The notes beneath the pieces were generated by a model. The model searched no databases, was not told the DNA's origin, and was given only the letters and a program-made list of their open reading frames with translations. From NCBI RefSeq assembly GCF_003334785.1, contig NZ_QOWV01000057.1: DNA of 2,355 nt; one strand, 5' to 3'. This document shows, piece after piece, positions 1 to 2,350 of this stretch (its first letter is position 1; each line of letters opens with the position of its first letter). The DNA is from Escherichia coli (lineage in GTDB: Bacteria > Pseudomonadota > Gammaproteobacteria > Enterobacterales > Enterobacteriaceae). A program made the translations under genes and the position numbers.

Positions 1-19
1 CGTTATATCCGAAGCCCCC

Positions 20-412
20 GTGGTAAAAAAACGTCCCCGGCGGCCCAACTTCCCTTATGAGTTTAAAATCGCCTTAGTGGAGCAGTCACTGCAGCCCGGA
101 GCCTGTGTGGCGCAGATCGCCCGGGAAAACGGAATCAACGATAACCTGCTCTTCAACTGGCGCCATCAATACCGGAAAGGTGGCCTGCTGCCTTCCGGAA
201 AAAATATGCCGGCACTGCTTCCCGTGACGTTAACGCCGGAGCCGGATAATAAAATCCCGGCCCCCGCACAGGAACCAGAGCAGATAAATACACCGTCCGA
301 CAGTCTGTGTTGTGAGCTGGTTCTGCCGGCCGGAACTCTCAGGCTTAAAGGTAAACTGACGCCGGCGTTATTACAGACACTTATCCGCGAAATAAAAGGG
401 AGCAGCCACTGA
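20..412 (+). CDS. tnpA: IS66-family accessory protein TnpA (orf1), predicted helix-turn-helix DNA-binding protein
   Basis: 130-aa ORF from GTG at 20 to TGA at 410-412. The N-terminus (EFKIALVEQSLQPGACVAQIARENGINDNLLFNWRHQYRKG) fits the HTH pattern of IS66 orf1 and related transposase N-terminal domains. A Pro/Glu-rich linker follows, then a C-terminal segment (ELVLPAGTLRLKGKLTPALLQTLIREI) resembling the conserved orf1 C-terminus. The reading frame is open all the way to position 2, so the true start could lie upstream of the window, and no clear Shine-Dalgarno precedes the GTG. Confidence 0.85.
   Translation: MVKKRPRRPNFPYEFKIALVEQSLQPGACVAQIARENGINDNLLFNWRHQYRKGGLLPSGKNMPALLPVTLTPEPDNKIPAPAQEPEQINTPSDSLCCELVLPAGTLRLKGKLTPALLQTLIREIKGSSH
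396..401 (+). promoter_or_regulatory. Shine-Dalgarno-like AGGGAG for tnpB, embedded in the 3' end of tnpA
   Basis: AGGGAG at 396-401, 10 nt upstream of the tnpB ATG at 412-414. Confidence 0.5.
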
Positions 413-778: not shown

Positions 779-2350
779 ATGGACACCTCACTTGCTCATG
801 AGAACGCCCGCCTGCGGGCACTGTTGCAGACGCAACAGGACACCATCCGCCAGATGGCTGAATACAACCGCCTGCTCTCACAGCGGGTGGCGGCTTATGC
901 TTCCGAAATCAACCGGCTGAAGGCGCTGGTTGCGAAACTGCAACGTATGCAGTTCGGTAAAAGCTCAGAAAAACTTCGTGCAAAAACCGAACGGCAGATA
1001 CAGGAAGCACAGGAGCGAATCAGCGCACTTCAGGAAGAAATGGCGGAAACGCTGGGTGAGCAATATGACCCGGTACTGCCATCCGCCCTGCGCCAGTCTT
1101 CAGCCCGTAAACCGTTACCGGCCTCACTTCCCCGTGAAACCCGGGTTATCCGGCCGGAAGAGGAATGCTGTCCTGCCTGTGGTGGTGAACTCAGTTCTCT
1201 GGGATGTGATGTGTCAGAGCAACTGGAGCTTATCAGCAGCGCCTTTAAGGTTATCGAAACACAACGTCCGAAACAGGCCTGTTGCCGGTGCGACCATATC
1301 GTGCAGGCACCAGTACCTTCAAAACCCATTGCACGCAGTTATGCCGGAGCGGGGCTTCTGGCCCATGTTGTCACCGGGAAATATGCAGACCATCTGCCGT
1401 TATACCGCCAGTCAGAAATATACCGTCGTCAGGGAGTGGAGCTGAGCCGTGCCACACTGGGGCGCTGGACAGGTGCTGTTGCTGAACTGCTGGAGCCGCT
1501 GTATGACGTCCTGCGCCAGTATGTGCTGATGCCCGGTAAAGTCCATGCTGATGATATCCCCGTCCCGGTCCAGGAGCCGGGCAGCGGTAAAACCCGGACA
1601 GCCCGGCTGTGGGTCTACGTCCGTGATGACCGTAACGCCGGTTCACAGATGCCCCCGGCGGTCTGGTTCGCGTACAGTCCGGACCGGAAAGGTATCCATC
1701 CACAAAATCACCTGGCCGGTTACAGCGGTGTGCTTCAGGCCGATGCTTACGGTGGTTACCGGGCGTTATACGAATCCGGCAGAATAACGGAAGCCGCGTG
1801 TATGGCTCATGCCCGGAGAAAAATCCACGATGTGCATGCAAGAGCGCCCACCTACATCACCACGGAAGCCCTGCAGCGTATCGGTGAACTGTATGCCATC
1901 GAGGCAGAGGTCCGGGGCTGTTCAGCAGAACAGCGTCTGGCGGCAAGAAAAGCCAGAGCCGCGCCACTGATGCAGTCACTGTATGACTGGATACAGCAAC
2001 AGATGAAAACACTGTCGCGTCACTCAGATACGGCAAAAGCGTTCGCATACCTGCTGAAACAGTGGGATGCACTGAACGTGTACTGCAGTAATGGCTGGGT
2101 GGAAATCGACAACAACATCGCAGAGAACGCCTTACGGGGAGTGGCCGTAGGCCGGAAAAACTGGATGTTCGCGGGTTCCGACAGCGGTGGTGAACATGCG
2201 GCGGTGTTGTACTCGCTGATCGGCACATGCCGTCTGAACAATGTGGAGCCAGAAAAGTGGCTGCGTTACGTCATTGAACATATCCAGGACTGGCCGGCAA
2301 ACCGGGTACGCGATCTGTTGCCCTGGAAAGTTGATCTGAGCTCTCAGTAA
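779..2350 (+). CDS. tnpC: IS66-family DDE transposase TnpC (orf3)
   Basis: 523-aa ORF, ATG 779 to TAA 2348-2350. It has an N-terminal heptad-rich coiled-coil region with the IS66-typical FGKSSEKL motif (nt 953-976). A CxxC...CxxC zinc-finger-like pair follows (CPAC at 1169-1180, CRC at 1283-1291). Candidate catalytic residues are HADD (D at 1550-1555), QADAYGGY (D at 1742-1744) and NNIAEN (E at 2123-2125). Length and domain order match IS66 transposases. Confidence 0.95.

Follow-up and report, generated by a model that had tools for sequence, protein, structure and literature searches.

TnpC, the transposase encoded in a 2,355-nucleotide stretch of Escherichia coli DNA (assembly GCF_003334785.1, contig NZ_QOWV01000057.1; the whole stretch is hereafter the window), is best explained as the DDE transposase of an intact IS66-family insertion sequence (IS), in which Asp258, Asp322 and Glu449 would be the catalytic residues and a helical domain is inserted after the fifth strand (b5) of the catalytic core. 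We give this reading a probability of approximately 0.88. The window itself is the interior of a complete, transposed IS of the ISCro1-like type, because an identical copy elsewhere retains both ends and has a perfect 8-bp duplication at its flanks. That TnpC belongs among the DDE enzymes is correct but already known, IS66 transposases having been assigned to the RNase H-like superfamily (PMC3985635) and listed as DDE enzymes (PMC8024623). The only mildly new part of this analysis is an explicit mapping of TnpC onto the active site of ISCth4, an IS256/Mutator element, including the histidine of a CxxH motif.

Both DDE and CwAH-rR motifs are described for the IS66 family in ISfinder, and Gourbeyre, Siguier and Chandler reportedly described the DDE together with a conserved CwAH-rR motif for the family in 2010 (Res Microbiol 161:136). 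The literature that could be searched yielded no usable explicit description of an IS66 DDE, CwAH motif or insertion domain.

Conservation of the candidate catalytic residues

TnpC scores 477.9 bits against the IS66 transposase equivalog of NCBIfam (NF033517, transpos_IS66; cut-off 180) and matches four IS66 families in Pfam, PF03050 (E 5e-103), PF13817, PF13005 and PF13007. The domains are laid out as LZ_Tnp_IS66 (residues 46–121), zf-IS66 (128–172), DDE_Tnp_IS66 (186–472) and DDE_Tnp_IS66_C (479–516). A first-pass annotation, made from the sequence alone, had proposed a DDE triad on the strength of three motifs resembling conserved IS66 motifs, naming Asp258 or Asp259, Asp322 and Glu449. On translating positions 779–2350 all three were found exactly where it had put them: VHADDIP at residues 255–261 (1541–1561), LQADAYGGY with Asp322 at residues 319–327, and the motif containing Glu449 at residues 442–453, with spacings of 64 amino acids from 258 to 322 and 127 from 322 to 449.

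Relatives of TnpC are abundant, with 47,568 found among 1.84 billion cluster representatives. Column conservation was assessed in a set of 103 sequences, comprising the query and 102 full-length representatives of 34–51% identity. A tblastn search of plasmids with the catalytic domain returned at least 5,000 records, all of at least 55% identity; the column counts rest on the homologues of at least 34% identity. Between residues 180 and 523 only six of 35 Asp or Glu residues are acidic in at least 90% of the sequences, at positions 258, 259, 322, 375, 444 and 449. All four residues named in the first-pass annotation are among these six, and hence its choice was better than chance (hypergeometric probability approximately 3e-4 by our own arithmetic).

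The family alignment that the annotation had suggested as a check, in which TnpC matches DDE_Tnp_IS66, bears out the triad. Asp258 is invariant (103/103), Asp322 is replaced once, by Ser in homologue P0029 (102/103), and Glu449 is replaced twice, by Ala in P0022 and by His in P0029 (101/103). Thus, P0029 has lost both Asp322 and Glu449. Deviations at 31 near-invariant columns number 11 in P0029 and six in P0022, against a median of one, a pattern consistent with these two being decaying copies and with a functional link between Asp322 and Glu449. Basic residues had also been noted shortly after Glu449, and these too are conserved: Arg453 (E+4) is Arg in 91 of the 103 sequences, Arg459 (E+10) in 96, and Lys460 (E+11) is Lys in 88. 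They belong to a wider group of conserved columns around the glutamate, namely N445, N446, E449, R453, G458, R459, K460 and N461.

A second conserved cluster lies downstream of Asp322, where Cys341 and His344 are invariant (103/103) and Arg346 and Arg347 are each present in 102 sequences, giving the consensus CWAHARR; Met342 stands in the window TnpC where the IS66 consensus has Trp.

Predicted fold and insertion domain

An AlphaFold2 model of TnpC, built from the homologue alignment, has a predicted local distance difference test score (pLDDT) of 93.6 and a predicted template modelling score (pTM) of 0.80. The RNase H-like fold, for which the first-pass annotation had proposed looking, is present as a five-stranded mixed sheet in the order b1-b2-b3-a1-b4-a2-b5, the elements spanning residues 254–266 (b1), 271–282 (b2), 294–300 (b3), 306–311 (a1), 317–320 (b4), 325–332 (a2) and 336–339 (b5). 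Asp258 and Asp259 lie on b1, Asp322 two residues past b4, and Glu449 close to the beginning of the first helix beyond the insertion. This is the DDE superfamily arrangement of one Asp on b1, another after b4 and a Glu on the next core helix, and, together with the conservation, it supports Asp258, Asp322 and Glu449 as the catalytic residues.

The spacing of the motifs had further been noted as consistent with a DDE fold carrying an insertion domain, and such a domain is indeed present in the model. Between b5 and the helix bearing Glu449 the chain is entirely alpha-helical, with helices at residues 342–355, 359–378, 383–409, 417–427, 429–432 and 434–437 (DSSP on the model). An all-alpha insertion and a C/DxxH motif characterise the clade that contains IS256-MULE, hAT, P and Transib-RAG1, the insertion being so defined in PMC7780238, and TnpC possesses both features. 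From this topology, and from superposition with ISCth4, we infer that the three carboxylates converge on a metal-binding pocket.

Comparison with ISCth4 and other DDE transposases

The closest structural relative of TnpC is the ISCth4 transposase TnpA of the IS256/Mutator group (PDB 6xg8, 6xgw and 6xgx). Its active site consists of D175, D241 and E348 with a C262/H265 CxxH motif, which opens an insertion domain of four helices (residues 261–325) between b7 and a12 (PMC7780238). The two proteins share an RNase H-like core whose fifth strand is followed by an all-alpha insertion, and a CxxH motif that opens the insertion. Spacings are similar, the two Asp residues being 66 amino acids apart in ISCth4 and 64 in TnpC, and the second Asp and the Cys 21 and 19 apart respectively. 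Around the glutamate, TN.IE in ISCth4 aligns with NN.AE in TnpC.

These correspondences were recovered by profile alignment. The ISCth4 sequence was drawn from the PDB with an IS256 probe that served no other purpose, IS256 itself was taken from pSK1 (L014), and the IS256-family profile comprised 25 sequences, 17 from annotated plasmid transposase loci and eight from the ISCth4 cluster; D175, D241, C262, H265 and E348 are invariant in all 25. When the IS66 catalytic profile was aligned to it with hhalign (P 0.0056, 151 columns), D258 was paired with D175, D259 with A176, D322 with D241, C341 with C262 and H344 with H265, and the extended alignment added E449 with E348, N446 with N345 and D444 with T343. 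A single ISCth4 sequence against the IS66 profile gave a probability of 0.5% and aligned the wrong region.

The differences are substantial. Sequence identity is approximately 13%, the insertion is longer in TnpC (127 amino acids from the second Asp to the Glu, against 107 in ISCth4), and the N-terminal DNA-binding and dimerisation modules of TnpC are of another kind, being a coiled coil and a zinc finger. Unlike IS256, which has a single open reading frame (ORF), IS66 elements probably need the accessory proteins TnpA and TnpB. TnpC has no match to PF00872 (Transposase_mut), and membership of IS256/Mutator was rejected on this basis, together with the low identity and the weak hhalign score. 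TnpC therefore resembles the IS256 transposases in fold and shares their catalytic architecture without being a member of that family. Eukaryotic DDE transposases, namely hAT Hermes, the P element and Transib/RAG1, are more distant; their structural match to TnpC is much weaker than that of ISCth4, sequence similarity is undetectable, and they follow different reaction pathways, involving hairpin formation or a GTP cofactor.

Among IS66 transposases, by contrast with these groups, nothing of substance sets the window TnpC apart beyond Met342 and Ile260 in place of the consensus Trp and Thr. It is the same protein as the TnpC of ISCro1 (relatives ISEc8, ISEc22, ISKpn24 and IS679), with the same gene order, domain layout (leucine zipper, zinc finger, DDE domain and C-terminal element) and 8-bp duplication.

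Alternative assignments

Several observations count against the proposed active site and its mapping. Neither the protein nor the 103-sequence profile found an IS66 structure or transposase in the PDB by sequence, and the searchable literature yielded no experiment or mutagenesis on any active-site residue of an IS66 TnpC. The match to the IS256 profile is weak, with an hhalign probability of 6.5%; the C-terminal piece alone returned the E449–E348 pairing as its top local alignment at a non-significant P of 0.12, and a less diverse, shallow ISCth4 profile gave the same pairing at E 0.28. The sequence signal nevertheless carries weight because it is collinear with the strong structural match to ISCth4. 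Finally, Ile260 (window 1556–1558) directly follows the Asp-Asp pair in the window TnpC, where 96 of the 103 sequences have Thr; this substitution is probably harmless, since ISCth4 carries Ile177 at the equivalent position.

The identity of the first carboxylate is the point on which the first-pass annotation left a choice. Asp259 lies on the same strand as Asp258 and its column is acidic in 102 of 103 sequences (Asp in 77, Glu in 25), which might suggest that Asp259 is the ligand, or that the adjacent acids share metal binding. We regard this as improbable. Asp258 never varies, whereas Glu and, once, Ala are allowed at position 259; neighbouring residues of a strand face opposite sides, such that only one can face the site; and it is Asp258 that aligns with catalytic Asp175 of ISCth4, Ala176 standing opposite Asp259. 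Asp259 was rejected as the primary ligand for its tolerance of Glu and Ala and its pairing with Ala176. Hence, of the pair originally named, Asp258 is very likely the carboxylate and Asp259 is probably not a metal ligand.

For the third carboxylate, both Glu375 (acidic in 103/103) and Asp444 (Asp in 94/103) equal many active-site residues in their conservation, and Glu375, at 53 amino acids from Asp322, would require no insertion domain; Glu449 would then be structural only. This is very unlikely. Glu375 sits off the core, on helix two of the inserted bundle, and its counterpart position in ISCth4 is non-acidic, and it was rejected on both grounds. Asp444 lies two residues ahead of helix 446–462 and gives way to Ser, Thr or His nine times among the homologues, with Glu449 retained in eight of these nine, while the equivalent IS256-family column contains Thr in 17 sequences, Ser in seven and Ala in one; the Ser/Thr replacement pattern and the position before the helix point to a helix N-cap, and Asp444 was rejected as a metal ligand. 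Glu449, in contrast, sits at the canonical place on the helix and aligns with Glu348 of ISCth4. Glu375 and the invariant Arg390 (1946–1948) sit on neighbouring helices of the insertion and might form a buried salt bridge or contact DNA.

Least credible of all is the idea that the motifs are relics in an inactive or domesticated copy, as the Ile at near-invariant position 260 and the many fragmentary or IS-interrupted IS66 copies of E. coli might suggest: the tnpC ORF is full length with four Pfam domains, departs from the consensus at one of the 31 near-invariant columns, shares its isoleucine with ISCth4, is found in 1,791 records at an identity of at least 99%, and has an identical copy bordered by a perfect 8-bp target duplication.

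Proposed mechanism

In characterised DDE enzymes, three carboxylates hold two Mg2+ ions. By analogy, Asp258 on b1, Asp322 past b4 and Glu449 on the helix beyond the insertion would hold two such ions in TnpC, which would first activate water to cleave the element hydrolytically at its 3' ends. The same ions would next activate each liberated 3'-OH to attack the target DNA at positions staggered by 8 bp, and joining of the 3'-OH ends at this distance would produce the 8-bp target duplication observed. As a fourth active-site residue we propose His344 in the invariant Cys341-x-x-His344 motif. It probably contacts or positions the scissile phosphate, like its counterparts in Hermes, RAG1 and Transib. 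In Hermes the CxxH histidine contacts this phosphate, and its role has been described for Hermes, RAG1 and Transib (PMC7780238).

The element and its ends

The window (Table 1) contains three ORFs on the same strand, a truncated tnpA, tnpB and tnpC. This is the three-gene order of the IS66 family, and all three products score above their NCBIfam cut-offs. The RefSeq tnpA is 678 nt long and ends at window position 412, having started approximately 266 nt upstream of the window; the GTG start at position 20 listed for tnpA (ORF 20–412) is an artefact of the 5' cut made by the window edge. Stop and start codons of tnpA and tnpB overlap in TGATG (TGA 410–412, ATG 412–414), which suggests translational coupling. 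Between the end of tnpB at 759 and the ATG of tnpC at 779 (19 nt on) there is a GAGG, 2 nt upstream of the ATG.

Table 1. Features of the window and its borders, with positions numbered from the first nucleotide of the window.
Feature	Position	Strand	Basis
tnpA, 3' part only	2..412	+	NCBIfam NF038385, 187 bits against cut-off 150, profile positions 80–189 of 190
tnpB, IS66 accessory protein, 115 aa	412..759	+	NCBIfam NF033819, 128.9 bits against cut-off 50; RefSeq
tnpC, IS66-family (ISCro1-like) DDE transposase, 523 aa	779..2350, stop included	+	ORF list, NCBIfam, Pfam, RefSeq
Catalytic domain DDE_Tnp_IS66, residues 186–472	1334..2194	+	PF03050, E 5e-103, model positions 1–283 of 284
RNase H-like core, first part, residues 254–339	1538..1795	+	
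Asp258, proposed first catalytic carboxylate, on b1	1550..1552 (GAT)	+	103/103; pairs with ISCth4 Asp175
Asp259, conserved acidic neighbour	1553..1555 (GAT)	+	Asp 77, Glu 25, Ala 1; pairs with ISCth4 Ala176
Asp322, proposed second catalytic carboxylate, two residues past b4	1742..1744 (GAT)	+	102/103; pairs with ISCth4 Asp241
All-alpha-helical insertion domain, approximately residues 340–437, between b5 and the Glu helix	1796..2089	+	Model
CxxH (Cys341-Met-Ala-His344), start of insertion domain	1799..1810	+	Invariant; pairs with ISCth4 Cys262/His265
Glu375, judged non-catalytic, in insertion domain	1901..1903	+	Glu 101, Asp 2; helix 359–378
Asp444, judged a helix N-cap	2108..2110	+	Asp 94, Ser 4, Thr 3, His 2
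Helix 446–462 bearing Glu449, then conserved GRKNW motif	2114..2164	+	DSSP on model, column conservation
Glu449, proposed third catalytic carboxylate	2123..2125 (GAG)	+	101/103; pairs with ISCth4 Glu348
Terminal inverted repeats, both just outside the window	-326..-297 and 2360..2388		L001 1174–1203 and 3860–3888

DNA 100% identical to the window occurs in many complete E. coli genomes, where RefSeq labels the product 'IS66-like element ISCro1 family transposase'. Matches to the element were found in 2,906 of 5,426 complete E. coli genomes, and the copies of at least 99% identity, in the 1,791 records mentioned above, lie at as many as 34 places in a single genome. Several human E. coli isolates carry the element split in two by an inserted IS600, of the IS3 family.

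Since the ends lie outside the window, they were examined in an identical copy, L001, from E. coli strain 2/0. There the element is 2,699 bp long, running from GTAACCGG... to ...CGCTTAC. Its terminal inverted repeats begin with GTAACCGGCTC... at 1182 and finish with ...GAGTCGCTTAC at 3880, matching at approximately 15 of 21 positions; an inverted-repeat finder missed these imperfect repeats, which were located by searching for the motif and by visual inspection. On either side stands TTTTGAGG, a perfect 8-bp duplication, and the element has therefore transposed. L001 thus has both the GTAA-starting terminal inverted repeats and the 8-bp target duplication of the IS66 family. ISCro1 in strain EC958 is 2,824 bp long (PMC8764528), 125 bp more than the L001 copy.

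Two features of TnpC lie N-terminal to the catalytic domain. The zinc-finger module comprises CPAC (1169–1180; Cys131 and Cys134) and, further on, CCRCDH (1277–1294; Cys167 to His172), in which Cys131, Cys134 and Cys168 hardly vary; in the model a long beta hairpin (residues 137–168) separates the two motifs. An FGxxSEK patch (residues 54–65; 938–973) ends the first long helix, with Gly60, Ser63 and Glu64 each conserved in at least 90% of sequences. A published survey reports beta-sliding-clamp-binding motifs near the leucine zipper of IS66 TnpC proteins (PMC3971601).

Significance

Beyond annotation the importance of these results is small, the element being a catalogued IS carried by more than half of the complete E. 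coli genomes, with a transposase already listed as DDE. The residue map of D258, D322, E449 and, likely, H344 could be used in the design of catalytic-dead mutants, for which D259, E375 and D444 are candidate negative controls. A broader reading, to which we give even odds, is that TnpC is a close structural cousin of the IS256/Mutator transposases, sharing with them the helical insertion and the CxxH histidine as a fourth active-site residue. This was probably predicted in part before, from secondary structure, and would refine existing knowledge even if true. Copy-out/paste-in is the pathway of ISCth4. For ISDge4, a single-ORF member of the IS66 family, 'copy-and-paste' behaviour was described in a 2026 report (PMC12898284). 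If TnpC is such a cousin, IS66 elements would most likely move by copy-out/paste-in through a circular intermediate, like ISCth4, and TnpA and TnpB would be regulators or assembly factors and not catalysts.
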